The notes below the pieces were generated by a model, which saw only the letters and a program-made list of their open reading frames with translations, ran no database searches and had not been told where the DNA came from. A DNA stretch of 36,682 bases from a virus: IMG/VR virus record IMGVR_UViG_3300006217_000225. One strand, written 5' to 3'. Within the stretch, counting starts at the first letter, position 1, and every line of letters starts with the position of its first letter. Position numbers and translations under genes: made by a program. This document shows positions 1 to 36,682 of this stretch, one piece after another.

Positions 1-77
1 AGACTTGATAATCGTTGGAATCCAGCTGTTTTATGGCGTATATCATGCGGGTTCGAATCCCGCTGGGGGCACCGATG
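1..77. repeat. Terminal direct repeat copy 1 (att core or assembly overlap)
   Basis: agacttgataatcgttgg...gctgggggcaccgatg is identical base for base to 36606-36682. Confidence 0.95.
47..73 (+). other. tRNA 3'-end fragment inside the att core (T arm + 3' acceptor strand), not a complete tRNA
   Basis: GCGGG-TTCGAAT-CCCGC is a T stem-loop (47-63). It is followed by TGGGGGC (64-70), discriminator A71 and CC (72-73). No D arm or anticodon arm can be drawn upstream. Confidence 0.75.
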
Positions 78-4469: not shown

Positions 4470-7400
4470 TCATGAGCTGATGAGATAGCTGAGGGTGACG
4501 AGGTTGTATCTGACCGCGTTTGATTCATCGAACAGCACGGCGTATTGGGTGGTGTTGACCATCACATGGCGTGGCATGGCGCGCACGATCACTTGGAATG
4601 AGCCGCTTTTCTCATTGCACGTGCTGGCCGACCAGTAGCAGCCGGGCTTATCCGAGTCGAGGCTGACCATGGATTTGTATCGTCCGTAGGCGGGTGGCGT
4701 GACTCCGAATGTGTGAGTGATCTTGGCGTATTCCTTGAGGGTATTTGATGAGTTTTCGCTCCAGCTGGCGACGAATGTCGCACGGCCGTCCATACCGCCG
4801 AGGTACCCACCCAAATGCAGTATCCCTGTTTGACTGTTGGCCAGTATGCCAACTGGTTTTTTGTTATCGACGCTGGCTGACATTTGTAACCATGTGGCCC
4901 CGTTGTTCTGTGCGTCGTCCGCTCGGACAAGGAGCTGTGCCCACGCGTTTGGTTTACGCGCGGCGATCTCTGCTCTACTGCCGTCGCCGCTGGTCTGTGA
5001 CAACGAAAATGAGCTGCGCCATTCACGTCGGCTGGTATCCGGGCTTTTGTGCAGGTAATCGCAGTTTGCGGTCATGTAGACGCTCGCCATCTCGGTTTTT
5101 GTCGACGCGTTGCGTGTTTGGCCGATGCGCATGAACGACCCGAACCCGGTTCCCGCACCGGCCGACCCATCGGTGCGCATACCGCCATTGATGGTGATCG
5201 TGGAGATCGCCCCATACAATGAATCATTTGATTCGGTGGCGATATACGGTGCCATCGCGTAGGTGCCCGACAAGGGGAATGAGATGCCTGAGCCGGTTTG
5301 GTATTGGTCGCTGCCGATGGTTGTTGTGCTGAATTTGGGGCTGATGACGATGCGGTCGCCACTGAGCGCGGTCTGCAATGTGCCGACAAGGATGTTCTCA
5401 TTGCCTTCGCCGTCCAGGTGCACGGTTTTGTCACCATTGGCGTTCCACATGTCGAGTGCGCCGTCACGTAGCTTGAAGCCCTTGTTGTCCTCCGTATGGG
5501 ATTGGAACACAGCGCCGGTGAACACATAGCCGACGAACTGGCCCGACTTGATCTTGTCGCTGGTGATCGTGCCGGACGCGATCTTGTCCGCCGTGATCGC
5601 GAGCGCGGCGATCTTCTCTGCCGTGATGGCGTTCGCGGCGATCTTGTCGGCGTTCACCGCGAGTGCCGCGATCTTCGCAGTGGTGACCGCGTTCGCGGCG
5701 AGCTTGTCGGCGACAACGCTGCCCGCTTTGATCTTGTCTGCGGTGACCGCATTCGCGGCGAGCTTGTCGGCGTTCACCGCATTCGCGGCTAATTTGTCCG
5801 TGGTGATGGCGAGTGCCTTGATTTTCTCCGCCGTCACCGCGTTCGCGGCAATTTTCTCCGCCGTGATGGCGTTCGCGGCCAGCTTGTCCGCGTTAACCGC
5901 GTTGGCGGCGAGCTTATCCGTCGTAATTGCGTTGGCCGCGATCTTCTCCGCCGTGATTGCGAGCGCGGCGATCTTCTCTGCCGTGATGGCGTTCGCGGCG
6001 ATCTTGTCGGCGTTCACCGCGAGCGCCGCGATCTTGGTGGCGGTGACCGCATTCGCGGAGATTTTCTCCGACGTGATGGCGTTGGCCGCGATCTTCTCCA
6101 CCGTTATCGCGTTGGCGGCGATCTTGTCTGCGACGACGCTCCCGGCTTTGATTTTGTCGGCCGTCACCGCGTTGGCCGCGATCTTGTCAGCGTTGACCGC
6201 GTTCGCGGCCAGTTTATCGGTCGTGATGGCGAGTGCCTTGATCTTCTCGGCCGTCACCGCGTTCGCGGCGAGGAGGTCGGTGCTGATGCTGCCGGTCACG
6301 GCGAGGGAGTCGAGGAACAGATAGTAGGAGGTGAATCGTGTGCCGTTCCATACGAGGGTTTCCTCGACCTCGTCAGCGTGTATGACGAGCACGCTCACGG
6401 AATCGTTGGGGGTGCCGAGCCAGTATGTTTCCGGGGACTTGGTGCTGGTGCGCCGCCACACGTCGCCCGGTGTGAGGTTGTCGTGCAATGGTTCGTCGGG
6501 TTGCGTGTAGACGGTGCTTTTCGAGTCGGCCGTGGTCTGCGCGCCAGCGGCTGCGGCCGCGGCGCTGACGGCTTTCGCGTCGGCGTTGGCGGCGTCCTTT
6601 TTGGCTTGTGCCGCCGTGGCCTGAGCTGTGTCGGCCGCCTGCTGCGCCTCCCAGGCTTCGGTGATGTCCTGCAGACGGAAATCGTCCACGTACATGTCGA
6701 CCGGCTGATTGTATGCGAGACGTGCGCGCAGCAAGGGCGTGCTGCTGGTGGCGACCAGATCGCAACTGGAGTACGCCCACCCGTCGCCCGTGGTGGCGCG
6801 TATCTCGGTTTTCGCGTTGGTGTCGGCCCAGTTTTTTCCGTCTGTGGAGTATTGCAGGCGCAGGCCACCGGCGGACGCCGTGCCCATGTTGATGAGTTTG
6901 TACCAGATGCTCAACCGGTAGCGGCGGTCGGTGACCGCGCGCACAGCCTGGGTGCCGATGAGCTCCTTGGTGCCCAGTCCACGGTTGAGGTAGGCTCGGC
7001 GCGACCCGGAGTGCGCGAACTGAGAGGTTTCGACAAACGCCGCCCCGGCCACGTTCGTCGCCCAATAGTCCGTGCCGTGCTCGAAACCGCTGTTGGGTTG
7101 CAGGTCGGCGGCCTGCTGCATGAGGATGTTCGCCGCGGTCTGCGCACTGGTCGCCGCCTGTTGGGCACTAGCCGCGGTCGCATTGGCCTGTGTGGCCACG
7201 CTGGACGCGTTGCCCGCGGTTGTCTTCGCGTCCGCCGCGTCGGTCTTGGCTGCCTCGGCGGCCTTTTTGGCGGTGTCGGCCGTGGTGGCGGCGTTCGTCG
7301 CTGTGGTGATCGCGTCACGCGCCGCGGTCTCGGCCGCCTGCGTCGCCTTGTACGCGCTCGATGTCTGCACTGGGGTCCACGAGAATTGCCCGTTGGAATA

Positions 7401-10361: not shown

Positions 10362-10365
10362 ATTA

Positions 10366-11235
10366 TCACCACCACGATTTGTAATATCTGACATAGGTTT
10401 GTTGCCCTGCAGGCACGCCATGCGTGGTCAGGGTCACACGGTATTTGCCGGCCGCGTCCGGCCAGATCTGCAATGGTCCATTCGCACCGTAGTCGAGGCC
10501 GGCCGTCACGTCCGCGCCACCGGTCCATGCGGTGGCGTTGCCACTGGTCCATGCATGCAGACGTTTTGGATCCACATACAGGTAGCCGCTCGTCGTCGTG
10601 CCGGACCATGCGATGCTCGTGCCGCTGGTCGGGTCGGTGAGCGTCATCGCGTCCACGCCCTTCGGCACACGGATGATCATGTCATCGATCGGCGCGTCGG
10701 ACTGGTAGCCATCCGGATACCCGTCCGGCGCGAGCACGCTCACGCTGTTGTTCGGTTCACCCTCCCACCATGTGGCCGGGCCGGGTATGGCAGAGGCATC
10801 CAACAGCACGCCATCGTCGGGCAGGGCGGTCAGGGTCGGGTCAGGGGCACGCCAGAACGGGCTCGTCATGGAGAACACCGCCGTGTACCGCGTATACCTG
10901 CCGAGCGTTGTGTCGTCCGCAGTCAGACTGGCCAGCACGACCTCGGCGCACCGGTCCATGAGCTGGTCCGGCATGCGACGGGTCAGGATCAGATGCGGCA
11001 TGGTGAGCAGGCGCAGCACGCGCCGCGTCTGCGCCCACCCATCACTGCCCGCGCACCCGATTTTCATGGTAAGCGTGCGCTGGCCGACCACGGGAGGGAG
11101 GGGAGGCACGGTGATGCCGTGCACGCCGGGCACCGTGACCACGTCCACGACCGGGCTGATGGGGGAGAGCCAATCGGACCCGTGCTCGATGACGCAATTG
11201 CCGTCGTCCAATACCACGCCGTTGATCAGATACAT
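10366..11235 (-). CDS. Distal tail protein (Dit)
   Basis: Lies immediately after the tape measure. GGGAGG RBS. 289 aa, a typical siphovirus Dit position and size. Confidence 0.7.
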   Translation of the reverse strand: MYLINGVVLDDGNCVIEHGSDWLSPISPVVDVVTVPGVHGITVPPLPPVVGQRTLTMKIGCAGSDGWAQTRRVLRLLTMPHLILTRRMPDQLMDRCAEVVLASLTADDTTLGRYTRYTAVFSMTSPFWRAPDPTLTALPDDGVLLDASAIPGPATWWEGEPNNSVSVLAPDGYPDGYQSDAPIDDMIIRVPKGVDAMTLTDPTSGTSIAWSGTTTSGYLYVDPKRLHAWTSGNATAWTGGADVTAGLDYGANGPLQIWPDAAGKYRVTLTTHGVPAGQQTYVRYYKSWW

Positions 11236-11247
11236 GCCACACCTCCC

Positions 11248-14200
11248 TTATGCGTCCTGGAACCTGTGGTCGGAATCATCGGCGGACTTCAACGGCCATG
11301 GTTGGGCGACCGGATTGTTGATCGTCTGGTAGATCGTCGTCGACCCAGCCGCCTTGCCATCATCGCCCTGCGGTGGCTCATACGGACGCCAACCGCCCGT
11401 ATTGACGCCGGGCATTCCCATTCCGTTGAGGCGTGCCTCCACACCGAAATCGAGGCCTTTGCCGATGACCATGCCGGTCATCTCGTCCATCGCCTTGCCG
11501 ACTCGTGAGGCGGCGTCGTCGATACCGATGGCGAGCCCCTCGTCCAGCCACTGGCCGTACTGCTTGAATATGCGCGATGGGCTGCCGATGCCGAGCACGC
11601 CCTTGGCCCAGCTCAGCACGTTCGAGCCGAGCGAGCAGATCTTGTCACGCACCCAGCCGAACATGTCACCGATACCATTGATCAGTCCTTGGATGAGGTT
11701 TCTGCCGGTGTCGCGCAACCATTCGCCGGCACCCCTGAGCGCGCCGAACACAGTGTCCTTGATGCTGCGAACCTTGTCGCCGATGAACCCGACCGCACTG
11801 CCGACCGCGTTCCGCATACCATTCCAGATGCCTGAGAAGAAACTGCTGATGCTGTTCCAGACACTCGTCCACGTGGACCGGATCGCATTGACCGCGTTCG
11901 TGATCGTGCTGCGGATCCCGTTGATGACCGGGGTGAAGAACGCGACGATACCGTTCCACACCGTCTGGAAGAAACTCGAGATCGCGCCCCACACGGAATC
12001 CCATGTCGCTTTGACCGCGTTGACGACCGTGGTGATCGTGTTCGAGATGCCCTCGATGATAGGCGTGAAGAACGCGACAATGCCGTTCCAGATGCTCTGG
12101 AAGAACCCGCTGACCGCGGTCCATACCGTGTTCCACGTCTCCGAGATGAACGTGCACACGGTCGTGATCGTGTCAGAAATGCCCTGAATGACCGGGGTGA
12201 AGAACGCGACGATCGCATTCCACACCGTCTCCCACACGGCCTTGATACCGTTCCAGATGGTCACGAACACGGCCGCGACGACGATGAAGCAGTTCTTGAT
12301 GAACTCACCAATCGGCATGATGACGTTCTGCACATATGCCTGGATGAAACCCCAGACGGCCTCGAACACCGTTTTGACACCATTCCACACCGTGTTCCAC
12401 ACGGAGGATACGCCGTCCCAAATGCCGGTGAAGAAACTCGAGATGCCACCCCACACGGATTGCGCGACGGAACTGATACCCTCCCACAATCCGGAGAAGA
12501 AGCTCGAGAGTCCCTCCCAGGCGGCCTTGCCTACCTCGCAGATCTTCTGCCACGCATCACCCAGCCACGACGTGAACGCAGCCCACGCCTTGCGCCCGAC
12601 CTCCGTTTGGGTAAAAAACCAGACGAGCGCGGCGACCACCGCCGCGATGGCGGTGATTATCGCGCCAATGGGGTTGGCGGCGATGATTGCATTGAATGCG
12701 CCCTGTACCGCGGTTGCGGCCTTGGTGGCCGCGCTCCATGCGGTCTGCGCGTTCTTGACGATGTTGAGCTGTCCGCCCATCTGCTTGAGCATTTGCACCG
12801 GTCCGCCCAGATCCATCATGAGCTGGATGCCGTTGCTGACGCCTTTCGCGGCTCCGGTGACGGTGTCCATCGTGCCTTTGAGCACCTGTAATCCGTTGTT
12901 GAGAGCCTGATACCCCTTGACACCGGCGAACGCCGTCCCGATTGTACCCAATGCGGCGACGATGACGCCGGGGTTCCGGCTGAACCAGCCGAGTACATCG
13001 TCGAGTACTTGCAATACCGGTTTGATCAGGTCAGCGATGGTTTTGAACGCGTCACCGACCGTCTGGCCGAACGATTGCGCGCCTCCGGCGGCACCGGTCA
13101 TCCGCCCGATCGCGTCGATGACGGATCCAAACACGTCCGTGGCACTGTTGATCACGTCCAATACGACGCCGAACACGTCTATCCACGCATCGAACACACC
13201 GGTGTCAGCGAACGACCGCGCGAAATCGGCCACCCACTGGATGCCATTGGAAAGCCAGTCAATGAGCTGGCTGACACGGTCCATGACGTCAGCGAGCGCC
13301 GACGCGGCTGTATTGCGTAGTTGTTCCCAGACACCGGCCGGGAGTAGGTTGCCCCAGTCGGTGTTGGAGAGTTTCGCGGTGAGCCCGTCCCACGCGGCCT
13401 TGAGAGTGTCGATGGCCCCGAGATCCTTGACGCGGTCCCACAATAGTGAGAACTGGTCTTTGGTGAACGTGACCATGCTGGCGGCCGCGTCGCCGATCTT
13501 GCCGAACTGGCTGCTGAACCCGTTGATCGCGCCGGCGATGTTCTCCACGCCGAACGCTTCGACGACCTTCTGCACGGCCTTGGCGACACGGTTCCTCACG
13601 TTCTCGATGGCGGTGCCGATGCCCTGTGTCGCGTCCTTGGCCTGCTGCGCGAACGACGCGTACTGGGCGAACCCGTTCTGGTTCAAATCGACGATGGCCT
13701 TGTTGAAATCGTCGAAGCTGTAGGTGCCGTCCTTCATGGACGCGTACAGGTCGTTGGCGTTGTGGCCGGCACCCATCATCGCCTCGGCGACCTGGTTCAA
13801 TTGGCCGGGCATGGCCGCCTGGATGGAGCGCCATGCGGCCATGTCCACCGTGCCCGCGGAGAGCATCTGCGTGTACTGGGCGAGCGCGTTCTCCTGCTCC
13901 ATCGTCGAAGCGCCACCCGCCAACATCGCGTTGTTGAACGCCAATGAGATGGTGGTAGCCTCGTCAAGGTTCGAGGTGAGTGGGGCGAGCTGTTGGACCA
14001 TGCCGGTCATCGCGCTCGATGTGGTGGGTAGACCATCGAGGGAGTCGGAGATCTTCTTGATGCTCTTGGCCGCGTCCTCAGAGGAGTACCCGAGGTTTTT
14101 CATGACCTTGGGGAAGTTGTTCATCTGGTCCGCGCGGCTGACGGCACTGGAGATGCTGGATCCGATGGTGTCCATCGCCTTGCTGGTGATGGCGCTGGCG

Positions 14201-14379
14201 GCCCCGATGACCGCGCCCATCTTGGCTTTCAGGCCGCCGGCGAACCCGCTGCCGGCGGCCTTGCCTCCCGAGAGGCCGGCCTTGCCGCTGGCACCGTCGA
14301 ACGCGGAGACGATGGCGTTGCCCACGCCCTTCATGCTGGGCACGATGGCCACGTATGCCTCGGCGAGTTTGATTGCCAT
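11248..14379 (-). CDS. Tape measure protein (1043 aa)
   Basis: Largest gene after the chaperones. Gly/Ala-rich N-terminus. Repeated W/F-rich units (...WNGIVAFFTPVI.GI..TIT..VNA...W..VW). Contains the GIGSPSRIFKQYGQWLDEGL motif. Confidence 0.9.
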   Translation of the reverse strand: MAIKLAEAYVAIVPSMKGVGNAIVSAFDGASGKAGLSGGKAAGSGFAGGLKAKMGAVIGAASAITSKAMDTIGSSISSAVSRADQMNNFPKVMKNLGYSSEDAAKSIKKISDSLDGLPTTSSAMTGMVQQLAPLTSNLDEATTISLAFNNAMLAGGASTMEQENALAQYTQMLSAGTVDMAAWRSIQAAMPGQLNQVAEAMMGAGHNANDLYASMKDGTYSFDDFNKAIVDLNQNGFAQYASFAQQAKDATQGIGTAIENVRNRVAKAVQKVVEAFGVENIAGAINGFSSQFGKIGDAAASMVTFTKDQFSLLWDRVKDLGAIDTLKAAWDGLTAKLSNTDWGNLLPAGVWEQLRNTAASALADVMDRVSQLIDWLSNGIQWVADFARSFADTGVFDAWIDVFGVVLDVINSATDVFGSVIDAIGRMTGAAGGAQSFGQTVGDAFKTIADLIKPVLQVLDDVLGWFSRNPGVIVAALGTIGTAFAGVKGYQALNNGLQVLKGTMDTVTGAAKGVSNGIQLMMDLGGPVQMLKQMGGQLNIVKNAQTAWSAATKAATAVQGAFNAIIAANPIGAIITAIAAVVAALVWFFTQTEVGRKAWAAFTSWLGDAWQKICEVGKAAWEGLSSFFSGLWEGISSVAQSVWGGISSFFTGIWDGVSSVWNTVWNGVKTVFEAVWGFIQAYVQNVIMPIGEFIKNCFIVVAAVFVTIWNGIKAVWETVWNAIVAFFTPVIQGISDTITTVCTFISETWNTVWTAVSGFFQSIWNGIVAFFTPIIEGISNTITTVVNAVKATWDSVWGAISSFFQTVWNGIVAFFTPVINGIRSTITNAVNAIRSTWTSVWNSISSFFSGIWNGMRNAVGSAVGFIGDKVRSIKDTVFGALRGAGEWLRDTGRNLIQGLINGIGDMFGWVRDKICSLGSNVLSWAKGVLGIGSPSRIFKQYGQWLDEGLAIGIDDAASRVGKAMDEMTGMVIGKGLDFGVEARLNGMGMPGVNTGGWRPYEPPQGDDGKAAGSTTIYQTINNPVAQPWPLKSADDSDHRFQDA

Positions 14380-20553: not shown

Positions 20554-22014
20554 TTATGGTTCGTTGGTTCCGCCACCGTGGTCGGTAGCGTCCTGTGGTG
20601 GTTCCTTTTGCGCATTGGTCTGCGCGCGCAGCTGGTCGAGTTGCTGTTTGGCGCGTTCGGATTGTTCCCAGGCGCGTTGCTCGCGGATCTCCTGCCAGCT
20701 CAGTCCGGCTTTGGACAGGCCCACGTCGGAGTTCGCGAAGCTTGGGTTGACTCCGGCGACCTTCGCGTAGTAATCGGCGCGTGCCGCGTCGCTGGTCTCC
20801 TTGGTCGGTGCCCACACCGGCCTGATGCGGTTGATGTCCTCGTCGGACGCGCCTTCCGCTATGAGTGCCATGCCGAGCGCGTCACGCAGCGCACGCCCGA
20901 AACGTAGGTTCTGCCGGTCGGCGGTGCGGCTGAGTTTGCGTTCTGCTTCTGCCATTGCCTCGGCCGAACCGGGGTTGTCCACCGTGATGCCCAGGTCGGT
21001 TGCGGGGATATCTGTCTCGGCGGCGACCATGAGTGCCACGGAGCGCAGCATGTCGGCGTGCGGCTGCATGCTTGCCTGCGACAATTGGCGCATCTCGGGC
21101 TTGTCGCCGTTCTTGCTGGCCGGCACACCGTTGATGACCTGCAGCAGCGAGCTCCACGTGTCGGGCGACACCTGTCCTTTGTTCGCGCCGAGGAACCAGA
21201 TGCGTGGCGCGGCGTAGAACTCGGCCGTTGCCTCCATGCGCACCAGGGTGCGCAACCCGAAATCGGTGAGCGCCATGAGCGGGCGTGTGATGCGGCTGGA
21301 ACCGAACGGGCGGTTGAGCTGCTCGTCATGGACGAACGGCACCACGGTGGGCCGGTCGAACCCGGTCTCCACCGGTTCGGCCACCCAACGGCCGAGGTAC
21401 GGGCCGGAATCACGGTGGCAATCCCACACTACATATGGCAGCCAGACACGGAACGCGGTGATGTAGCCGTGCTTGTCCTTGTCGGTGATTGTCAACGCGG
21501 CCTTGATGCGGTTATGCGTCCAATCCCATATGGCGGCCGACCAGTCCGCCGAGCGTGGTGTGATCAGCGTGCGCCCCTCATCGTCCAAGGACACTGTCAG
21601 GAACGCGCACCCATGCGTGTACGCCGACACGACGCACTGCGGCACCTTCACGTCCAGCATGCTCACATCACACAGGTCGTCTACGCGTGACTGCAACGAT
21701 TCTGGCGCATTGAATCCCTCGAACGTGGACAGGTCGGCGAGCGCGCGAACGGCCTTGTTCGGCCAGCCGATCATCGGTTTGGCCATGGCGCGCATGCTGG
21801 CGGGGATGGAGTAGGCGACGCCCTTGTACCCGTAGTGGGCCAGATAGTAGCCGGTGCGTAGCGTGTTGCGTGGGTAGTGTTTGCGCCATATGTTGAGTAA
21901 TTGCAGTGTGGTGGCCTGGCTGTCCGCGTCCATGCCTTGGATGGAGCCGATATGGGCGCTTTCCACGGCGAGGTAGCCGTTGTCCTGCGTGGTGAGGCCG
22001 GTGTCTAGTACCAT
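20554..22014 (-). CDS. Portal protein (SPP1 gp6-like)
   Basis: 486 aa from the ATG at 22014 (GGAGG RBS; overlaps the TerL end by 10 nt). The 128-aa Arg/His-rich upstream extension in the ORF track was discarded. Confidence 0.85.
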   Translation of the reverse strand: MVLDTGLTTQDNGYLAVESAHIGSIQGMDADSQATTLQLLNIWRKHYPRNTLRTGYYLAHYGYKGVAYSIPASMRAMAKPMIGWPNKAVRALADLSTFEGFNAPESLQSRVDDLCDVSMLDVKVPQCVVSAYTHGCAFLTVSLDDEGRTLITPRSADWSAAIWDWTHNRIKAALTITDKDKHGYITAFRVWLPYVVWDCHRDSGPYLGRWVAEPVETGFDRPTVVPFVHDEQLNRPFGSSRITRPLMALTDFGLRTLVRMEATAEFYAAPRIWFLGANKGQVSPDTWSSLLQVINGVPASKNGDKPEMRQLSQASMQPHADMLRSVALMVAAETDIPATDLGITVDNPGSAEAMAEAERKLSRTADRQNLRFGRALRDALGMALIAEGASDEDINRIRPVWAPTKETSDAARADYYAKVAGVNPSFANSDVGLSKAGLSWQEIREQRAWEQSERAKQQLDQLRAQTNAQKEPPQDATDHGGGTNEP

Positions 22015-23462
22015 GCCCCCTCCTCTCTGGTGGGGTCGCGTCTGCTGGTCATCGCGCCGTGCAGTGCGAGCGTGCACGCCACAAGCGGGCTGATGTCGGT
22101 GTCGTCGTCGGGGCGCTGCCAGCCGAACAATCCGTTTTTGCCGATCGCTCGTGAGGTGGCTTTGCGCGCGGCAGTCCATAATGGTTCCTGCCGTCGTTCG
22201 GGCAGGTGGGTGAGTGTGCCGTCGCGCAGCATGTCCTGGAAGCGTCCGCATGCTTTGCCCATGTCGGACGCGTTCGTCACCGTGACCGTGATGCCGGCGT
22301 CCTGCAGTTCCGGCATGAGGCTGACCGCCGGTGACTGCGCGTCCACGACCACGGCGGCTGCCTTGTCCCACACGCCGGCGAGCAGGTTGACGGCCCACAT
22401 GGTGCCGTCATGCCCGGTGTCTCGGTATTCGGCCAGTTCGATGTGCGCGGTGTCATCGTCGTAACGCATGCATGCGCCAATCGTCAACCGGGTGCGTGCC
22501 GGGTTCATGTCCAGTGCGAAGCTCATGACACCGCCGTCGCGACGCCGGTCGACAGTCGCTTCGTCCCATTTGGCTTGGTCGATGACGCTTGTCGTGCCGT
22601 GCTCGTCCCAGATTCCCAAAGCCTCACGGCGGAAATCATCCAAGGTCAGGCCGTCGTACAGTTCCAGGATCGCGTCACGGGTCGTATGCGTCGGATAGCT
22701 CGGGTTCGCCTTCGCCCACTGAGCCTCGTTCAACGGGTCGGCATCACGGTCCGCGCTGAACTCCACGTAGAAGGTCGAATGCGCGCGTCCCGCGCACGCT
22801 TTGGCCCGTTGGCGGGTGAACGCCTCGCCCATGTCATGCGGTCCGGGCGGCGTGCCCATGTAGATCGTCTGCGGATTGTAGGCGCGGTTCTGTGTGGGCA
22901 GCATGCTCGCCTTGGCCGCGTCCGACAGGATCTGCGCCTCATCGACCACGAGCAGCCCGACCTTCTTGAAACCACGCAGCGCGCCACGTTCACGGGCACG
23001 GAAGAAAATGCGGCTGCCGTTACGGAAGCGTATCTCCTCCTTGCCAGCGGCAAGGCTGATGCCATGCTCCGGGTCGACCAGATACCCCATCTCGGGGCGC
23101 AGCACACGTGAGCACATGTCCTCGAACGTGTCATGCAGGACACTGAAATGCTGCGCGGTCCACACAATACGAATGCCAGGAGCGCGGGCGGCCCGGTGGA
23201 TGGCGAGCCACTCGATATCGAACGTCTTGCCCGTCTGGCGTGGAATAGACAGCACACCGTTGCGTGCACACCAGAACCCGTCATCGTCCTTGGCCAGCAG
23301 GATCCGGTTGATCTGCCGCTGCCAGACATCGAACCGGTCACCGGCCACCCCTGCGAGCGCGTTCAGGCTCGGCTCGCCACTCGTCTTCATGCCTTCGGGC
23401 AGGATGCAACGGCTCGCACCGTCAACCAGCATCCCGCTCATCGTCATCTCCGATCGGCTCAT
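22005..23462 (-). CDS. terL: Terminase large subunit
   Basis: Walker A-like IPRQTGKTF. About 480 aa, located upstream of the portal. The true start may be the ATG at 23441, which has GGAG 6 nt upstream. Confidence 0.85.
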   Translation of the reverse strand: MSRSEMTMSGMLVDGASRCILPEGMKTSGEPSLNALAGVAGDRFDVWQRQINRILLAKDDDGFWCARNGVLSIPRQTGKTFDIEWLAIHRAARAPGIRIVWTAQHFSVLHDTFEDMCSRVLRPEMGYLVDPEHGISLAAGKEEIRFRNGSRIFFRARERGALRGFKKVGLLVVDEAQILSDAAKASMLPTQNRAYNPQTIYMGTPPGPHDMGEAFTRQRAKACAGRAHSTFYVEFSADRDADPLNEAQWAKANPSYPTHTTRDAILELYDGLTLDDFRREALGIWDEHGTTSVIDQAKWDEATVDRRRDGGVMSFALDMNPARTRLTIGACMRYDDDTAHIELAEYRDTGHDGTMWAVNLLAGVWDKAAAVVVDAQSPAVSLMPELQDAGITVTVTNASDMGKACGRFQDMLRDGTLTHLPERRQEPLWTAARKATSRAIGKNGLFGWQRPDDDTDISPLVACTLALHGAMTSRRDPTREEGAWY

Positions 23463-23854: not shown

Positions 23855-24202
23855 TTAGTCGAACCAGTGTGATGGTGCGATTGGTGTTGTGGTGTGGTTG
23901 TGGTCGTGTTGTGGTGCGTTGCCTTGTTGGATGAGTTCGTGTACTTTGCGGCGGGCCCATGTGAGGCTGTGGGTGCTTTTGATGCGGTTGCACCACCAGT
24001 GTGCGGGTTCTTGGTTGTCGTAGGTGAGTGTGCCGCCGTGTTTGAGGGGGATGATCTCGTCGATGACGAAGCTGTATGGGTGTGGTGCTTTGAGTGTGTA
24101 GTCGATGGCTTGCCCGCAGATGGCGCAGGGGAGTGCTTGTGCTTTCCATCGTTGGCGTTGGCGTTGCCGGTTGACGTGTTGGTAGCGGGGGTTGTTGCTC
24201 AT
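23855..24202 (-). CDS. HNH endonuclease (packaging-associated)
   Basis: Motifs CAICG, DEIIPLKHGG and PAHWWCN give the H-N-H pattern with a Cys pair. Located directly upstream of the terminase genes. Confidence 0.8.
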   Translation of the reverse strand: MSNNPRYQHVNRQRQRQRWKAQALPCAICGQAIDYTLKAPHPYSFVIDEIIPLKHGGTLTYDNQEPAHWWCNRIKSTHSLTWARRKVHELIQQGNAPQHDHNHTTTPIAPSHWFD

Positions 24203-24575: not shown

Positions 24576-24908
24576 TCACGTGTTGGCTGCCTGTTCTGCG
24601 GGCGCTCGCCGGTATCGGTCGATGAGGTCGTGATGTGCGCTGATGAACGCGCCCCAGTCGATGCGCTCGCCGGTGTCGACGGTGCGGCGGCCTCGGCGTG
24701 TGGTTTTGCGCATGCCGCAGCCTTTTCCGCAGCCAGAGGCGTAGCCGCGGTTGATGGCGGCGAGGAGCGCGTCGGTGCGTTTGATGATGTGGCGGCCGCA
24801 TTCGCATTCGCATTCCCATAGTCCGGTGCGGTTTCTGTGTCCAATGAGGCCGATGACGAGCAGGTGCCCGATTTGTTTGCCTGGGTGGATGATGGTTGAG
24901 TCGCTCAT
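24576..24908 (-). CDS. Zinc-ribbon protein (110 aa), function unknown, possible regulator
   Basis: WECECECG...GCGKGCG Cys clusters. Last gene before the late leader. Confidence 0.55.
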   Translation of the reverse strand: MSDSTIIHPGKQIGHLLVIGLIGHRNRTGLWECECECGRHIIKRTDALLAAINRGYASGCGKGCGMRKTTRRGRRTVDTGERIDWGAFISAHHDLIDRYRRAPAEQAANT

Positions 24909-25903: not shown

Positions 25904-26079
25904 CGGCGGCCCTTCGTGGTCGGCGGCTGGTCGGTGTGGGCGCGTTTTTGGCGGTTGATGTCGTGCATCATGCCGGTCAGCACGGCGATGCTCAACTGGG
26001 TGCGGGCGTGCACGCTCTCGATGTCGTCGCCCGCTTCGAGCATGCGCCATGCGCGTTCGCTGAGTTTGCTGCTGCTCAT
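25900..26079 (-). CDS. Small 59-aa protein (HTH-like)
   Basis: ATGA overlaps at both ends. Sequence MSSSKLSERAWRMLEAGDDIESVHARTQLSIAVLTGMM. Confidence 0.5.
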   Translation of the reverse strand: MSSSKLSERAWRMLEAGDDIESVHARTQLSIAVLTGMMHDINRQKRAHTDQPPTTKGRR

Positions 26080-27083
26080 GCGTGTTCCTCCCTGGTCTGG
26101 ATCGCGTTGTCGAGGGTCTGGCCGATGACGGTGTCTGCGGCGGTGTGCCAGTCGTCCCCGTCTCGGATGCGTTGGTTGACGTCGGGGTGCAGGCGCATGA
26201 CGGTCAGGTAGTCGATGCCGGCGTCGAGCAGGCGGGCGTCGAAATTGTTCGCGAACCAGTAGTCGCTTGGCAGTGGCACGTCCTTGGGTTTCGGAAGCCA
26301 GTCGCGCCATTGGCCGCGTTCGAGCCAGTTAGCCATCGTCGGTGTCCAGCGGGCGTCGTCACGGTTGGCGGCGGTGTGGGCGGCGTACGCGTCGACGCTC
26401 GCGCGGAGCCTTCCGGCGTCGGTGTCGGCGAGGGTGTCGCGCCAGACGCGTCTGGTCTTGGTTTTCGAGCCGGTGTGTTTGGGGTAGGCGTCCCATGCGG
26501 CGTCGAACCCGTCGTCGTCTGGGTCGTCGTGGTTGGGGGAATCATCGCTGCCCGTCCCCGTGGGGGGACTATAGGGGGGTATATCTGTTTCTATATCTGT
26601 TTCTGCTTCGTTTTGCTTCGTGTTTGCTTGAGCACTTGCTTCGGTTTTGCTTCGCTCTTGCTTCGGTTCGGCTTCGGTTGTATGTGTTTCTGCTTCGTTT
26701 TGCTTCGTGTTTGCTTGCGTCGCGCGGCTCTCACCGGACTTCCTGCCGCCCTTGCGGCCGGCGGCGGCGCGCTTGGCGCGCAGATCCTCCTGCTCGCCAC
26801 TGGATATTTGCGACTTGAGGAAGTCGTGGATTAGCCAGCCGCCGTCTACGGGGTCGATGAACCCGGCTTCCTGCAGTGCGGTGATGTCGTCGTCGGTGCC
26901 GCCGAGGAAGGTGCGCATCGCGAAGTCCTCGACATAGCCGTCGCTTTTGCGGTCGACGGCGTAGGTGATGGCGAGCACCCACAGGAACGCGGCCTGCGCG
27001 TGTTCGGCGGCGAACGAGCGCACTTTGACGTTGAGGTAGAGCTTCGCCGAGAGTTTCGCGAAGGTCGTCATGTCCTGTGCCAT
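26076..27083 (-). CDS. Putative replication initiator / replisome organiser
   Basis: The N-terminus is winged-helix-like. The central low-complexity region is encoded by an iteron-like array. Positioned between the recombination genes and the late regulators. Confidence 0.45.
   Translation of the reverse strand: MAQDMTTFAKLSAKLYLNVKVRSFAAEHAQAAFLWVLAITYAVDRKSDGYVEDFAMRTFLGGTDDDITALQEAGFIDPVDGGWLIHDFLKSQISSGEQEDLRAKRAAAGRKGGRKSGESRATQANTKQNEAETHTTEAEPKQERSKTEASAQANTKQNEAETDIETDIPPYSPPTGTGSDDSPNHDDPDDDGFDAAWDAYPKHTGSKTKTRRVWRDTLADTDAGRLRASVDAYAAHTAANRDDARWTPTMANWLERGQWRDWLPKPKDVPLPSDYWFANNFDARLLDAGIDYLTVMRLHPDVNQRIRDGDDWHTAADTVIGQTLDNAIQTREEHA
26581..26720. repeat. Iteron-like array (candidate origin of replication) inside the replication gene
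   Basis: Ten (T)TGCTT(C)G-type motif copies at 10-12 bp spacing with one 21-bp gap (8 exact GCTTCG + 2 GCTTG variants). An exact 32-nt duplication occurs at 26599-26630 and 26686-26717. atatctgtttct occurs twice at 26581-26604. The patch is locally AT-richer. Confidence 0.6.
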
Positions 27084-32806: not shown

Positions 32807-32906
32807 AATTGACATAGTACTGCCCAATTGGGCAAAGTCAAGACGACACGCCGCCCAATTGGGCAGTACTCAGCCGGAAGAAGAAGTTACAATGTCCATA
32901 TGGACA
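32800..32906. promoter_or_regulatory. Genetic switch: four palindromic operators and divergent, apparently leaderless promoters
   Basis: Operators: TGCCCAATTGGGCA (32821-32834), GCCCAATTGGGC (32853-32864), TGTCCATATGGACA (32893-32906) and TGTCCATAATTGACA (32800-32814). Minus-strand promoter: TTGACT (32841-32836), 16 nt, TACTAT (32819-32814). Plus-strand -10 box: TACAAT (32888-32893). Confidence 0.65.
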
Positions 32907-33277
32907 TCAACGAAGCCACTGCGAAGGCATTATCCGCAGAACGAGCCGCATCGGGGCTGACCATAAAGGAATTAGCCGAAAAATCGGGTATCCCAGAACG
33001 TACCCTGATTCGCGTGCTCAAGGGAGAGCGCGACATCAATATGCTGCAAATCAGCAAACTCGCTCCGATTTATGGTATGCAGCCACACGAAATAATCGTT
33101 GAGGCTGAACGATATATCGCACGAGACAGGCGGAATGCAGTCATCAACGCCGGGGATCATATTATGAATGCCGAGGATCGTGAACGCGAAGCGTTAAGGC
33201 GTGCCGCGTCAGGTGATTATGATCTCGCCGCATACGATGACGGCGGCCGTTGGGGGAACGGCGATGGATACGAGTGA
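32900..33277 (+). CDS. XRE/CI-like prophage repressor
   Basis: HTH_3 motif LTIKELAEKSGIPERTLIRVLKGERDINMLQISKLAPIYG. The ATG at 32900 lies 6 nt after TACAAT. Confidence 0.8.
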   Translation: MDINEATAKALSAERAASGLTIKELAEKSGIPERTLIRVLKGERDINMLQISKLAPIYGMQPHEIIVEAERYIARDRRNAVINAGDHIMNAEDREREALRRAASGDYDLAAYDDGGRWGNGDGYE

Positions 33278-33740
33278 GCGGCGCGCCATATTCAAACGCG
33301 TAACCAGCGATTACGTGACCTATGGACCGATGAGACTCGCCCTGTACCAGCTCGCACCGAGCCTCATAGTCTCATCGTCCACGACACTCGCTGGGACACG
33401 CATGGGAGTATACGATTCGCGGCTTGAGACAATCACCATCAGGCGGGCCCTAGGGCTCGACGTCAAACGCTGCGTACTCGTCCATGAACTCGCCCACTGG
33501 GTATACGATGACGACTCGCGGCCGCCCTATGGGGCGAAGCGTGAACGTCATGCGCGCAAGGAAGCCGCAGACGCACTGATCGACGCGACACGTTATGCGC
33601 AGGCGGAACGCATGTACGAGGGCGACCTATGGCAGATCGCCGACGAACTCGGCGTCTACCCAGGAGTGGTTGACGACTATCGCAAACTCGTCATCCCGTC
33701 GACGCGACTGCAGCAGAGCACAGCCTACGGCGAATGGTGA
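33264..33740 (+). CDS. ImmA/IrrE-family zinc metallopeptidase (anti-repressor protease)
   Basis: HELAH at 33483-33497, in the context VLVHELAHWV. Overlaps the 3' end of the repressor gene by 14 nt. The gene pairing matches ImmR/ImmA modules. Confidence 0.7.
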   Translation: MDTSERRAIFKRVTSDYVTYGPMRLALYQLAPSLIVSSSTTLAGTRMGVYDSRLETITIRRALGLDVKRCVLVHELAHWVYDDDSRPPYGAKRERHARKEAADALIDATRYAQAERMYEGDLWQIADELGVYPGVVDDYRKLVIPSTRLQQSTAYGEW

Positions 33741-33767
33741 CGATCACACACAGAAAGAAGGGGAAAC

Positions 33768-35429
33768 ATGGTCTCGGATAGGCGTTTCAGGCATGGATTG
33801 AACATGCTGCGCGGGGAATACTCCGTACTCACCAGCACTGGATCCGTCATGCAGACGACGGATACCTCGTCAAAGCACATGTTCAAGAATTGCACAATCA
33901 TCGAAGTTCCGCAGCCAAACGGCAGAAAGACGCATCTAGCGGTATGTAGTGGGCGTGGCGATATCGTCTTCGAGACAAACGGGCGGCATTCCGCCATCTA
34001 TGCGCTTCTGGAACAATTCGCCGACCAACAGGTCGAAGAATTCTCATGGCGTCCATACGCGGAATCGTCAACGCCGACAATCGAATGCAAGCTATACGCG
34101 CGGCATGAGCCAAAGGCCACAGAGCCAGTCATCAACAGAATCGTGCTGGATGTGGAAACCACCGGGCTTGACCCTGAGGGCGATGAGATACTGCGCTTAT
34201 CGATCATCGATGGCGGTGGTGCCGCACTGCTCGATGAGACTTATAAGCCGGAACATACAACGTCATGGCCCGATGCGCAGAGAATCAACCGGATCAGTCC
34301 GACATCGGTCAGGAACCGCCCGCCAATCACCGACGACATCGAACGCATCCAAACGCTGCTCGACAGGGCGCAAGAGGTATGTGCGTTCAACGCCGACTTC
34401 GATCTCGCGTTCCTGGGTGAGATTGGACTGCGGCTGGATACCTCGAAGGTGCGCGACACCATGCGCGAATATGGCCGTGCATTCCATGGAAGTGATTACA
34501 TTAAACTGACCCAGGCCGCCGAAGAATGCAACTACCGGTACAACGCGCATGATTCCCTGTCGGACTGTCGGGCCACGCTCGTCGTGCAGACCCGCGTCGA
34601 CAATTATAGGGAACGCAAGGCAGCGAAAATCAATTGGGGTGATGTGTCGGAACCGACACGGCGGCCGAAGAAGCGCGAGACCAAGACCCAAGCACGAATC
34701 TACACGGCACTGACATGGATCCTACTGTTTCTATGCGCTGTGCTTATAGCGGTATGTTTTGCCGCTCCATATATGCTTATCGTTGCGATACCAACATGTT
34801 TCATCTGCCGAGCGTGCGTCAAGCACGCAAGGGGAATGCGTGAGCGTACAGGTCTATCGAAGTCATCCCACAAGGGGAAACATAGCGGACAACAGCAACG
34901 TACGGAAAACATGCCGGAGCCTGCGGCAGCGGCAGGCGCAGATGAAGCCGAGTACGAACGCCGGCTCGCGATGGAGGCGACCAAAACGGTGAGGCAGCAG
35001 GCCGAGGCGAATCCGCCGGCAGCGAGCGCGCCGGTTCCTGCGGTCCATATCGACGAGGCGTCGGTCATTCCCGGTGATGAACCGCCGATGTTCATGGTTC
35101 GTGGGTCAAAGGTCGCGAAGTTCAAGGGTGATGACGGCACTGACTTCACCCTGTACCAGCGCACCATCAAGTGCGGTCGCGAGGAACATCGGCTCGACGG
35201 TGTAGAGGCTGTGGTCGAGGAAGGATCCGCATTGCAGTCACGGTTCACGGCGACACGCATCTTCCTTCTTGGCGTCTTCGCGTTGGCGTTCAAGAAGCGT
35301 AAGGGCGGTGAGAAGTGGCTCGGCATCATGGGGCCAGACTTCGCGTGGGTCTCCAGAGCCGACCGTAAGCATATCGGCGACGCGATGAAGTTCGCCGCGA
35401 AGGTCAACGACCAGGCGCGCAAACAATGA
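33768..35429 (+). CDS. 553-aa multidomain protein: unknown N-domain + DEDDh 3'-5' exonuclease + 2-TM hairpin + unknown C-domain; candidate lysogen-expressed defence/exclusion factor
   Basis: Exo I motif LDVETTG, Exo II FNADFD and Exo III AHDSLSD. Two hydrophobic helices at aa 311-351, flanked by K/R clusters. Strong GAAGGGG RBS. G+C is 51/100 at 33801-33900. Confidence 0.75.
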   Translation: MVSDRRFRHGLNMLRGEYSVLTSTGSVMQTTDTSSKHMFKNCTIIEVPQPNGRKTHLAVCSGRGDIVFETNGRHSAIYALLEQFADQQVEEFSWRPYAESSTPTIECKLYARHEPKATEPVINRIVLDVETTGLDPEGDEILRLSIIDGGGAALLDETYKPEHTTSWPDAQRINRISPTSVRNRPPITDDIERIQTLLDRAQEVCAFNADFDLAFLGEIGLRLDTSKVRDTMREYGRAFHGSDYIKLTQAAEECNYRYNAHDSLSDCRATLVVQTRVDNYRERKAAKINWGDVSEPTRRPKKRETKTQARIYTALTWILLFLCAVLIAVCFAAPYMLIVAIPTCFICRACVKHARGMRERTGLSKSSHKGKHSGQQQRTENMPEPAAAAGADEAEYERRLAMEATKTVRQQAEANPPAASAPVPAVHIDEASVIPGDEPPMFMVRGSKVAKFKGDDGTDFTLYQRTIKCGREEHRLDGVEAVVEEGSALQSRFTATRIFLLGVFALAFKKRKGGEKWLGIMGPDFAWVSRADRKHIGDAMKFAAKVNDQARKQ

Positions 35430-35452
35430 CCACATATTAGGGGTTGTTTCGT

Positions 35453-36607
35453 ATGGTGAATATCGCGAGCTATCAGACCAAGGCCGGCAAACGGTACCGT
35501 GTGCGCTACCGCAAGCCCGACGGCTCGCAGACCGACAAGCGTGGTTTCAAGCGCAAACTGGATGCGGAGACGTGGGCTGCCGAGCATGTCACCGTCGCCA
35601 AGGCGCGCGGCGAATACATCGACCCGCGTGACGGCAATATCACCGTGCGCCCGCTCTATGAGGCGTGGATAGCGAAGAAACGGATCTCTGCGAAGGAAAG
35701 CTACTACCACACGCTCGAGGGCGCATGGGCCGCGAACGCGGCTGACATGTGGGATTCTCGCCGTGTCAACACGATCACCCGTGAGGAGGTGCAGCGGTGG
35801 GCGGCGTCCATCTCGGACGGCACCGGCACGAGGGACGGCAGGCCGCGCAGCGCCACCGTCGTCATCAGGGTCGTGGACATGCTCGCCGGGATCCTCGATG
35901 ACGCGGTGTCGGACCGGCGCATACCGTCCAATCCTGCGCGCGGCATCGCCAAGCCCCGCAAACGCAAACGGCGGCACATGTACCTGACCGCGGCCGAGTT
36001 GTATGCGGTGGCCGATGGGGCGAAGTGGCGGCGGGACATCGTGCTCACGCTCGGGTTGTGCGGCATGCGGTGGGGTGAACTCGCCGCGCTGCGCGTGCGT
36101 GACGTCGACCTCGAACGCCACCGTCTGCACATCGGCGCGAGCGCGTCCACCGTCGCCGGCAAGGTCGTCGTCTCCGACCCGAAAACCTACGATGCGCGTA
36201 GCATCATGTACCCCGAGGCGCTCGACGCCATGATGCGCCGGAGGTGCGAAGGCAAATCGGATGACGATCTATTGTTCGATGCGCCGCACCGTCCGGGCGA
36301 GTACCTGTCGCTCGCCGACTGTCCCACGAGCCATGATGGCTGGTTCTCGGTCGCATTGCGGCGCGCGGGAATCGATAGGGGTCACATGACCGTACATGAC
36401 CTGCGGCACACGGCGGCGTCACTCATGGTGAGTGCCGGGGCGAACGTGAAGGCCGTGCAAAGGCAGCTGGGCCACCGGTCGGCGGCGATGACGCTCGACA
36501 CGTACGCGGACCTCTTCGACGCTGATCTGGACGACCTGTCGGCGGCCATGTCCGACATGCTCGCCCGTGAGCATGTGGGCAAAACGTGGGCAGACGGTGG
36601 TGCCTAG
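35453..36607 (+). CDS. int: Tyrosine integrase
   Basis: The N-terminal SAM-like/arm-binding region begins YQTKAGKRYRVRYRKPDG. The catalytic motifs are R...HDLRHTAAS...LGHRSAAMTLDTYADL. Ends at the att repeat. Confidence 0.9.
   Translation: MVNIASYQTKAGKRYRVRYRKPDGSQTDKRGFKRKLDAETWAAEHVTVAKARGEYIDPRDGNITVRPLYEAWIAKKRISAKESYYHTLEGAWAANAADMWDSRRVNTITREEVQRWAASISDGTGTRDGRPRSATVVIRVVDMLAGILDDAVSDRRIPSNPARGIAKPRKRKRRHMYLTAAELYAVADGAKWRRDIVLTLGLCGMRWGELAALRVRDVDLERHRLHIGASASTVAGKVVVSDPKTYDARSIMYPEALDAMMRRRCEGKSDDDLLFDAPHRPGEYLSLADCPTSHDGWFSVALRRAGIDRGHMTVHDLRHTAASLMVSAGANVKAVQRQLGHRSAAMTLDTYADLFDADLDDLSAAMSDMLAREHVGKTWADGGA
36575..36596 (+). repeat. Candidate integrase arm-type sites (P side), inside the int 3' end
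   Basis: gtgggcaaaac / gtgggcagacg are two phased 11-bp units. They match the 180-201 units in the same orientation. Confidence 0.5.
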
Positions 36608-36682
36608 ACTTGATAATCGTTGGAATCCAGCTGTTTTATGGCGTATATCATGCGGGTTCGAATCCCGCTGGGGGCACCGATG
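36606..36682. repeat. Terminal direct repeat copy 2 (att core or assembly overlap)
   Basis: Identical to 1-77. It begins inside the integrase stop codon (TAG at 36605-36607). Confidence 0.95.
36652..36678 (+). other. Second copy of the tRNA 3'-end fragment (att core)
   Basis: Same T-arm/acceptor sequence as 47-73, lying in the right-hand repeat. Confidence 0.75.

Follow-up and report, generated by a model that had tools for sequence, protein, structure and literature searches.

A prophage lysogeny operon of Bifidobacterium pseudolongum carries a predicted membrane-anchored DEDDh exonuclease that may act against superinfecting phages

What use might a prophage have for a nuclease whose gene is placed among the genes of lysogeny, outside the replication module? 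The question is raised by IMG/VR virus record IMGVR_UViG_3300006217_000225, a stretch of 36,682 nucleotides (nt) analysed here over its whole length and called the window below. Between the genes for an ImmA-type protease and a tyrosine integrase, an open reading frame (ORF) on the plus strand (33768-35429) starts with ATG and encodes a protein of 553 amino acids (aa). We tentatively propose, with a confidence somewhat short of even, that the product is a prophage nuclease tethered to the membrane and attacking DNA there as it enters, in effect an exonuclease version of the defence protein SNIPE. The protein is divided as follows.

33768..34127, plus strand: N-domain, aa 1-120, family-specific (AlphaFold2 pLDDT 83, pTM 0.73)
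34128..34637, plus strand: DEDDh (DnaQ-like) 3'-5' exonuclease domain, aa 121-290 (profile, fold and catalytic motif matches)
34692..34823, plus strand: hairpin of hydrophobic helices, aa 309-352, interpreted as a membrane anchor (hydropathy, flanking charges, two modelled helices)
34824..35102, plus strand: low-complexity disordered linker, aa 353-445 (pLDDT below 50), which holds a recombination junction at ~nt 34941 (aa 392)
35103..35429, plus strand: C-domain, aa 446-553 plus the stop codon (phrog_26783, 2.7e-5; 99% identity to the 185-aa protein P0018)

The exonuclease domain displays everything that characterises the DEDDh superfamily, namely the Exo I, II and III motifs and an RNase H-like exonuclease fold. 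D128 and E130 (codons at 34149 and 34155) lie in LDVETTG (Exo I, DxE), D212 (34401) in NADFD (Exo II, NxxFD), and H261 and D266 (34548 and 34563) in AHDSLSD (Exo III, Hx4D). These five residues, which an earlier note on this DNA had picked out as a complete DEDDh set, are invariant, together with N208, in an alignment of 18 family sequences. Pfam RNase_T (PF00929) aligns with aa 125-271 at E=6e-11, its 43.5 bits exceeding the cut-off of 24, and phrog_192, annotated as 'DNA polymerase exonuclease subunit', matches at E=7e-28. The best-scoring profile is the CRISPR-associated DEDDh model of PADLOC, PDLC01247, covered over its full 139 positions (E=3.5e-24). AlphaFold2 modelled the domain with pLDDT mostly 89-96, and Foldseek returned 115 matches from the PDB at E<=1e-3, all 50 among the matches listed being DEDD exonucleases or proteins containing such a domain. 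The Foldseek probability was 1.0 for DinG-exo, RNase T, the Streptococcus thermophilus DnaQ domain (a DNA 3'-overhang trimmer), PolC-exo and ISG20. On the strength of the motifs, profiles and modelled fold, we assign the domain to the DEDDh 3'-5' exonuclease superfamily and predict that it is catalytically active. Fold and catalytic motifs are shared with Pol III epsilon, the PolC proofreading domain and phrog_192. Equivalence to epsilon or PolC was rejected, as the NCBIfam models gave 24-43 bits against cut-offs of 196-1043 (e.g. 43 against 207) and there is no polymerase partner. Neither is the family one of ordinary host DnaQ/PolC paralogues, an outcome that the earlier note had allowed for: the N-domain is particular to it, its genes are carried by prophages and the catalytic residues are conserved.

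Downstream of the nuclease, aa 309-352 make up a single 44-residue hydrophobic block split by AAPY (Kyte-Doolittle hydropathy up to 2.8), with six K/R residues on its N side and four on its C side. AlphaFold2 placed two helices here, at 306-332 and 334-360 (pLDDT 73-82). The two hydrophobic helices with basic flanks that had been read from the letters, and the linker after them, are thus borne out by both hydropathy and modelling. A comparable double hydrophobic segment is found in 14 of the 17 homologues described below, while P0016 has a single, C-terminal one; the longer loops are acidic. By the positive-inside rule, the hairpin would keep both of the protein's soluble parts cytoplasmic.

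The N-domain appears to be new, being confidently folded in the model and lacking a significant relative. Its elements run in the order helix, four strands, helix and two strands, and a basic loop, G52-R53-K54-x-H56, is near-invariant in the family alignment. The first 120 residues had been described as free of recognisable motifs, and indeed sequence searches of Pfam, NCBIfam and the PDB gave no match, and fold searches of the PDB and BFVD none that was significant; a profile search returned one fragment and nothing else. The alignment of the domain was too variable for a DNA search pattern to be derived from it. The only recurring weak fold match was the HIRAN domain of HLTF (best E=0.1, TM score 0.32), which has a similar order of elements and which we keep as a lead only. 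HLTF HIRAN binds 3'-OH DNA ends. A HIRAN identity for the N-domain was not adopted (Foldseek E=0.1-0.4, TM score 0.27-0.32; hhalign probability against HLTF HIRAN 0.04%).

The C-terminal part of the protein has a separate origin. From residue ~392 onward, it is 99% identical to P0018, a stand-alone 185-aa protein present on dozens of contigs and encoded immediately upstream of the integrase gene in sister prophages; the alignment begins at EAEYERRLAME. At the DNA level, blastn aligned positions 34941-36682 of the window with 6768-8509 of the sister prophage L011 at 92%. Since a 99%-identical gene exists separately and the DNA homology starts at 34941, the ORF is an in-frame fusion by recombination, in which an exonuclease-hairpin module was joined to the body of a P0018-type gene at ~nt 34941. 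No C-domain gene was found beside the short exonuclease genes of the family, and the fusion is thus not a merger of neighbouring partner genes. Nor is it an artefact of assembly or a dead gene: its reading frame is kept in four clusters of 69-99% identity. Against the 87%-identical P0002 (L006), dN/dS was 0.15 in the N-domain, 0.07 in the exonuclease domain, 0.18 in the hairpin region, 0.19 in the linker and 0.05 in the C-domain. The dS values were ~0.8-1.1 across the exonuclease module and 0.09-0.26 across linker and C-domain, a difference of about tenfold between the halves that fits a mosaic. As dN/dS stays at 0.05-0.19 in every segment, the whole fusion is maintained under purifying selection. 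Cluster members of 172 and 152 aa were considered as pseudogene fragments and rejected, because they stem from genes called where contigs end, near the mosaic junction. Many metagenome contigs (L178-L181) end inside the ORF near ~34941 and yield these spurious 172- and 152-aa 'proteins'; the contig ends near 34941 suggest that exonuclease-bearing and exonuclease-free variants of the prophage occur side by side within samples.

The earlier note had taken aa ~440-553 for a further domain containing another hydrophobic stretch. A separate domain is present there, not as an integral part of the protein but as a separately evolving moron that was fused on. The stretch, ATRIFLLGVFALAF, is not a membrane segment: it falls below the hydrophobicity threshold and belongs to TxTR...GxFAxAxKKKxGGEK, the near-invariant core motif of a ~100-aa, nearly always soluble family. 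A profile search of 1.84 billion representative proteins recovered 702 relatives of the C-domain, mostly of 100-300 aa, which amount to ~700 sequence clusters at 50% identity. Transmembrane segments were absent from 148 of 154 relatives and present in six, and among 52 relatives scanned, 23 have a SHOCT tail and 14 an N-terminal DUF4429. AlphaFold2 modelled the C-domain with low confidence (pLDDT 42-59) as a run of strands, a short internal helix and a long C-terminal helix. The C-domain had no Pfam, PDB or PADLOC match; among the three soluble segments that the earlier note had set apart, the exonuclease alone was matched by a domain profile of Pfam (RNase_T). The hhalign program aligned the C-domain with the DUF4429-like N-terminal regions of the same proteins (probability 68%, E=4.6e-5, 89 columns; no direct Pfam match). 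DUF4429 is classed with the PH-like domains, and the C-domain is probably, at low certainty, PH-like and DUF4429-related. No literature on DUF4429 was found. Three stand-alone C-domain proteins (P0039, P0041 and P0049) bear a C-terminal double transmembrane segment of their own, indicating more than one independent joining of the C-domain to a membrane anchor.

The neighbours of the ORF are those of a lysogeny operon. The start of the repressor gene was taken from the gene call on the identical contig L175, and the coordinates of the ImmA and integrase genes from the same gene call set.

32900..33277, plus strand: CI-like repressor (HTH_3/XRE), first gene of the lysogeny operon (Pfam HTH_3 8.8e-8; PHROG 'transcriptional repressor')
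33264..33740, plus strand: ImmA/IrrE-type metalloprotease, Peptidase_M78 (Pfam PF06114 1.4e-5; phrog_87 4.7e-13)
33752..33763, plus strand: Shine-Dalgarno-like AGAAAGAAGGGG, read from the sequence 4 nt upstream of the ATG of the ORF
35453..36607, plus strand: tyrosine integrase, last gene of the operon (Pfam Phage_integrase 2.3e-19; phrog_1 2.9e-63)

The ORF is separated by 27 nt from the ImmA gene and by 23 nt from the integrase gene, all being co-directional, and with such gaps the genes for the repressor, ImmA, the exonuclease and the integrase look like one operon. The shared strand and the strong ribosome-binding site claimed earlier hold, and so does the low G+C content, which is 0.51 at 33801-33900. 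Over the whole ORF, G+C is 57.1% (window, 61.9%), and G+C at third codon positions (GC3) is 0.66, lower than the 0.82-0.85 of int, recT and yqaJ. The composition of the ORF is thus moron-like, with both values below those of core phage genes.

The exact 553-aa protein is present on 512 contigs, and 1067 collection blocks list it. Its public database entries, ASW24551.1 and THG27914.1, read "3'-5' exonuclease [Bifidobacterium pseudolongum]", and the carrier prophage is very common in this species, a gut commensal of animals. Among GenBank phage records, we found neither a DNA relative nor a full-length protein relative of the ORF, and no paper on the 553-aa protein, its N-domain or its C-domain was found in the literature. 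A homologue search of 5.8 billion proteins gave 17 clusters only. Three of them bear an organism name (Bifidobacterium amazonense, B. avesanii and Alloscardovia), Bifidobacteriaceae being the only taxon in which the family is known, and the other 14 consist of metagenome proteins. The N-domain and the exonuclease domain are common to 16 of the 17, and P0017 is clearly homologous in the exonuclease domain only. A scan of viral contigs gave one true member, on L095, which is the Alloscardovia prophage of L005; the other matches covered the exonuclease domain only. A scan of genome contigs used the generic DEDDh peptides LDTETTGL and DEILQLSIID and is uninformative on the distribution of the family; among the matches listed were unrelated exonucleases of Proteobacteria and Clostridia and no family member.

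Whether homologues recur near integrase genes, as the earlier note had wondered, could be judged from the contexts of eight different homologues, all from Bifidobacteriaceae. Seven of the homologues are encoded within a prophage lysogeny module and share the strand of the repressor-like or ImmA genes beside them, and in five contexts an integrase gene follows directly downstream on the exonuclease strand. The gene order is repressor, ImmA, exonuclease, integrase in the window and L006; repressor, exonuclease, ImmA, integrase in L001 and L008; the same with the integrase gene in the opposite orientation in L009; and a fused HTH-ImmA gene followed by the exonuclease gene in L005. Sister prophages L011-L014 share the integrase and RecT/YqaJ region with the window at 90-96% nucleotide identity, but they have no exonuclease. 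Their slot between the repressor and ImmA genes is filled by a gene for a 239-aa protein (L011 5540-6259) that matches phrog_4980, 'superinfection exclusion' (Sie), at E=4e-60. As the exonuclease gene lies between the repressor and ImmA genes in L001, L008 and L009, it occupies the position of the Sie gene of relatives. The lysogeny module of the sister prophages thus has two exchangeable cargo slots, one between the repressor and ImmA genes and the other just upstream of the integrase gene.

The Alloscardovia theropitheci prophage (L005 8001-10584; L095 5905-8488) carries the family member P0015 together with the ImmA gene fused to an HTH domain (375 aa). Two genes downstream of P0015 is a gene for a different DEDDh exonuclease of 374-379 aa, which consists of RNase_T plus DEDDh_C and matches the PADLOC model PDC-S48 more strongly, at E=3e-28.

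How could such a protein exclude a superinfecting phage? From the operon structure, its gene is probably co-transcribed with those for the repressor, ImmA and the integrase, and production of the protein in the lysogen is then probable. Both soluble parts would be kept by the hairpin at the cytoplasmic side of the membrane. When linear DNA of a superinfecting phage comes in, the enzyme would attack its free 3' ends there. In a more specific version, 3' cohesive ends would be trimmed and the incoming genome could not circularise. Neither the chromosome nor the resident prophage would suffer, since both lack free ends and the enzyme is confined to the membrane. The fused C-domain may add targeting or regulation at the entry site. 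A role in defence is supported by (i) the conserved active site, (ii) the conserved hairpin, (iii) the lysogeny slot, (iv) the positional equivalence to Sie genes, (v) purifying selection and (vi) the moron-like composition. The best profile, that of CRISPR-associated DEDDh, and the fold match to the DNA-trimming S. thermophilus DnaQ domain count for it too. In addition, no DNA polymerase gene is present on the gene map of the prophage, and the lack of a polymerase partner and the location outside the replication module count for defence as well. The defence interpretation is plausible, and its genomic context strengthens it.

Several observations weigh against this proposal. Whether a DEDDh domain acts on DNA or RNA cannot be assigned from its sequence, and RNase T, ISG20 and oligoribonuclease were equally good fold matches in Foldseek. 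An exonuclease is also a weaker weapon than an endonuclease for destroying a genome of ~40 kb. The HIRAN resemblance of the N-domain is not significant, and the PADLOC matches are confined to the exonuclease domain. One family member, the Alloscardovia protein P0015 (320 aa), has no membrane anchor. Another, P0012 of B. avesanii (L004 7247-13477), has no phage genes around it and is the only family member outside a recognisable prophage; its gene directly follows a MazE/PIN toxin-antitoxin pair, with a gene for a HipA-like kinase three genes further downstream. Finally, promoter and terminator scans gave counts equal to the shuffle expectation; they were not used and are silent on transcription.

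A broader version of the proposal strikes us as rather doubtful. It would make the protein the founding case of a prophage membrane-tethered 3'-5' exonuclease that excludes superinfecting phages by destroying the 3' ends or 3' cohesive overhangs of DNA on its way across the membrane, as an analogue of SNIPE in a Gram-positive host, with the N-domain, possibly HIRAN-like, capturing the 3' end and the ~700-cluster C-domain family, often arranged as DUF4429-Cdom-SHOCT, engaged in the same entry-site defence.

Among characterised systems, the closest parallel to a tethered nuclease is SNIPE, a membrane-bound nuclease that cleaves phage DNA during injection; its tethering prevents autoimmunity, and loss of the anchor is toxic (Saxton et al., bioRxiv 10.1101/2025.11.03.685801). 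Like SNIPE, the protein studied here would combine in a single polypeptide a nuclease on the cytoplasmic side, an anchor in the membrane and an accessory domain whose fold is unknown, and some SNIPE homologues have PH domains or two transmembrane segments (bioRxiv 10.1101/2025.11.03.685801). The parts differ, SNIPE comprising an N-terminal single-pass transmembrane segment, DUF4041 and a GIY-YIG endonuclease, whereas here a new N-domain and a DEDDh exonuclease are combined with a C-terminal hairpin. Neither GIY-YIG nor DUF4041 was found in the ORF, and no Pfam match beyond RNase_T appeared in it even at E<=10 on separate segments. Furthermore, SNIPE was characterised in E. coli, whereas this protein comes from a prophage of a Gram-positive host. 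We therefore liken the two in their presumed mechanism only; there is no sequence relationship, and the protein is not a member of the SNIPE family. The precedent nevertheless lowers the surprise of the idea that injected DNA is attacked at the membrane.

The TONDOs, ISG20-like DEDDh exonucleases with variable auxiliary domains, offer a second comparison: some are prophage-encoded, they defend against RNA phages, and the defence by some of them is nuclease-dependent (Santos et al., PMC13344964). The present protein likewise joins a DEDDh exonuclease to auxiliary domains in a prophage, and its exonuclease domain matches the ISG20 fold (E=1.2e-5, TM score 0.74 normalised to the target), one among many fold matches. 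In contrast, TONDOs trim the 3' untranslated regions of RNA phages in Gram-negative hosts, and a membrane anchor is not mentioned in the part of the report available (PMC13344964). The best sequence profiles of the present protein are the CRISPR-associated DEDDh and phage 'polymerase exonuclease subunit' models. The former profile, PDLC01247, recalls the Cas2-DnaQ trimmers, and one of the top-ranking folds in Foldseek is that of the S. thermophilus DnaQ domain (TM score 0.70 normalised to the target). The match is to this domain only, there is no Cas2 fusion, and the membrane anchor and flanking domains set the protein apart; no CRISPR array or cas-like gene was seen in the prophage by gene map and direct-repeat scan.

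With Sie proteins of the phrog_4980 type, the protein shares the lysogeny-module slot in sister prophages, (predicted) membrane association and presumed expression in the lysogen. Classical Sie proteins (Sie2009- and Ltp-like membrane proteins or lipoproteins) are small non-enzymatic injection blockers, whereas the protein studied here has a complete nuclease active site. PADLOC PDC-S48 matches the DEDDh domain at E=3.5e-10 in its exonuclease part only (positions 8-185 of 411 and 21-174 of 512), as it does in other family members; no literature on PDC-S48 was found. The comparison with Cap18, a CBASS effector, did not survive: the neighbours here and in the homologous loci are repressor, ImmA and integrase genes, and no CD-NTase operon or other CBASS gene is adjacent. 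The earlier note could match the architecture to no named defence family; nothing beyond the exonuclease domain matches one, and on its sequence the protein appears to belong to none.

Other roles for the protein were weighed against the defence proposal. One is an RNA-directed or abortive-infection effector, whose DEDDh domain would trim the 3' ends of RNA (phage transcripts, host tRNA or rRNA) or which, on release from the membrane during infection, would degrade nucleic acid indiscriminately, much as a TONDO/ISG20-like exonuclease or a sequestered toxin might. The strong fold matches to RNase T, ISG20 and oligoribonuclease fit this idea, as do the TONDOs, prophage DEDDh enzymes with auxiliary domains that defend by trimming RNA 3' ends. 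The tether could also be a safety catch, given that removal of the SNIPE anchor is toxic, and it is possible to speculate that the disordered linker and the adjacent ImmA protease would in principle permit release by cleavage. Nevertheless, we judge this role unlikely: the best profile is the CRISPR-associated DEDDh model, whose members trim DNA, no sensor domain is recognisable, and nothing points to regulated release. Bifidobacteria, moreover, are not known to have RNA phages, which counts against an RNA target.

The exonuclease may alternatively serve the life cycle of the prophage itself, by processing DNA ends in excision, induction or replication, by providing or removing a single-stranded DNA signal for the ImmA/repressor switch, or as an accessory of proofreading or recombination. 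The gene is next to the ImmA gene in six of the eight contexts and shares its strand with the integrase gene, and the annotation of phrog_192 as a polymerase subunit points the same way. We hold such a role to be improbable. L011-L014 have the same integrase and RecT/YqaJ module without the exonuclease, so the life cycle can proceed in its absence; no DNA polymerase is encoded in the prophage, the gene is outside the replication module and moron-like in composition, and a membrane anchor is difficult to reconcile with replication or excision.

Less probable still is a barrier to other nucleic acids, such as transforming single-stranded DNA or plasmid DNA, or an anti-defence enzyme degrading nucleotide or oligonucleotide second messengers of host immunity. 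Transforming single-stranded DNA, which enters 3' end first, would encounter a 3'-5' exonuclease at the membrane, but natural competence has little documentation in bifidobacteria, which counts against a transformation barrier. DEDD enzymes do include dinucleotidases linked to Actinomycetes genomic islands and defence loci. However, NrnC-like diDNases belong to a different DEDD subfamily, no second-messenger system is adjacent to the ORF, and the expected place of an anti-defence gene is the early lytic operon and not that of lysogeny. Finally, that the ORF is an accidental recombination fusion, with one or neither half functional, hitch-hiking in a successful prophage is very improbable, for although the junction lies in the disordered linker exactly where the sister-prophage homology begins and the dS values of the two halves indicate a recent mosaic origin, the frame is kept in four diverged clusters, dN/dS is low in all segments including the linker, the exact protein is widespread as counted above, and the truncated forms are contig-end artefacts.

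The window as a whole is a complete prophage of ~36.6 kb, at each end of which the direct-repeat scan found a perfect 77-nt direct repeat.

1..77, no strand assigned: left copy of the 77-nt repeat, read as attL (100% identity, spacing 36605; tRNA 3'-end-like sequence inside)
36606..36682, no strand assigned: right copy of the 77-nt repeat, read as attR (repeat scan and sequence reading)

The repeat includes tRNA T-arm/acceptor-like sequence, GCGGGTTCGAATCCCGC..., and ARAGORN found no complete tRNA in the window. Given the perfect repeat at both ends, the window spans a single prophage precisely, from attL to attR, integrated at a tRNA gene's 3' end. The minus strand carries the lysis, tail, head, packaging and early genes, and the plus strand, at the right end, the four packed genes of the lysogeny operon. 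Two HNH endonuclease genes on the minus strand (23855-24202 and 24576-24908) lie beside the terminase region (22005-23462). An HNH endonuclease next to the terminase goes with cos packaging in HK97-like phages, which would yield 3' overhang substrates, and the HNH-terminase pairing suggests HK97-like cos packaging here. A gene for a very large tail protein (4470-10421, minus strand, 1983 aa) contains ~17 overlapping repeats with a period of 30 nt (10 aa) at 5490-6269 and further repeats of 126-168 nt at 8077-8443. The presumed tape-measure gene (11248-14379, minus strand, 1043 aa) has repeats with periods of 132 nt and 33 nt at 11816-12490. In the phrog_3926 replication initiator gene (26076-27083), short direct repeats are clustered at 26594-26717, including three copies of 11 nt at 26632-26675 and two copies of 37 nt at 26594 and 26681, and these look like the iterons of an origin embedded in the gene.

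If the protein is indeed a tethered exonuclease directed against entering phage DNA, it would represent a second, mechanistically different immunity that recognises foreign DNA by the place and manner of its entry, not by its sequence, and the need for free ends would provide a simple basis on which self could be told apart from non-self. It would also open two uncharacterised domains to study, the N-domain and the C-domain with its family of ~700 clusters. For B. pseudolongum, the proposal would assign a role to a gene carried by a very common prophage, and it would help to explain which bifidophages infect which lysogens.

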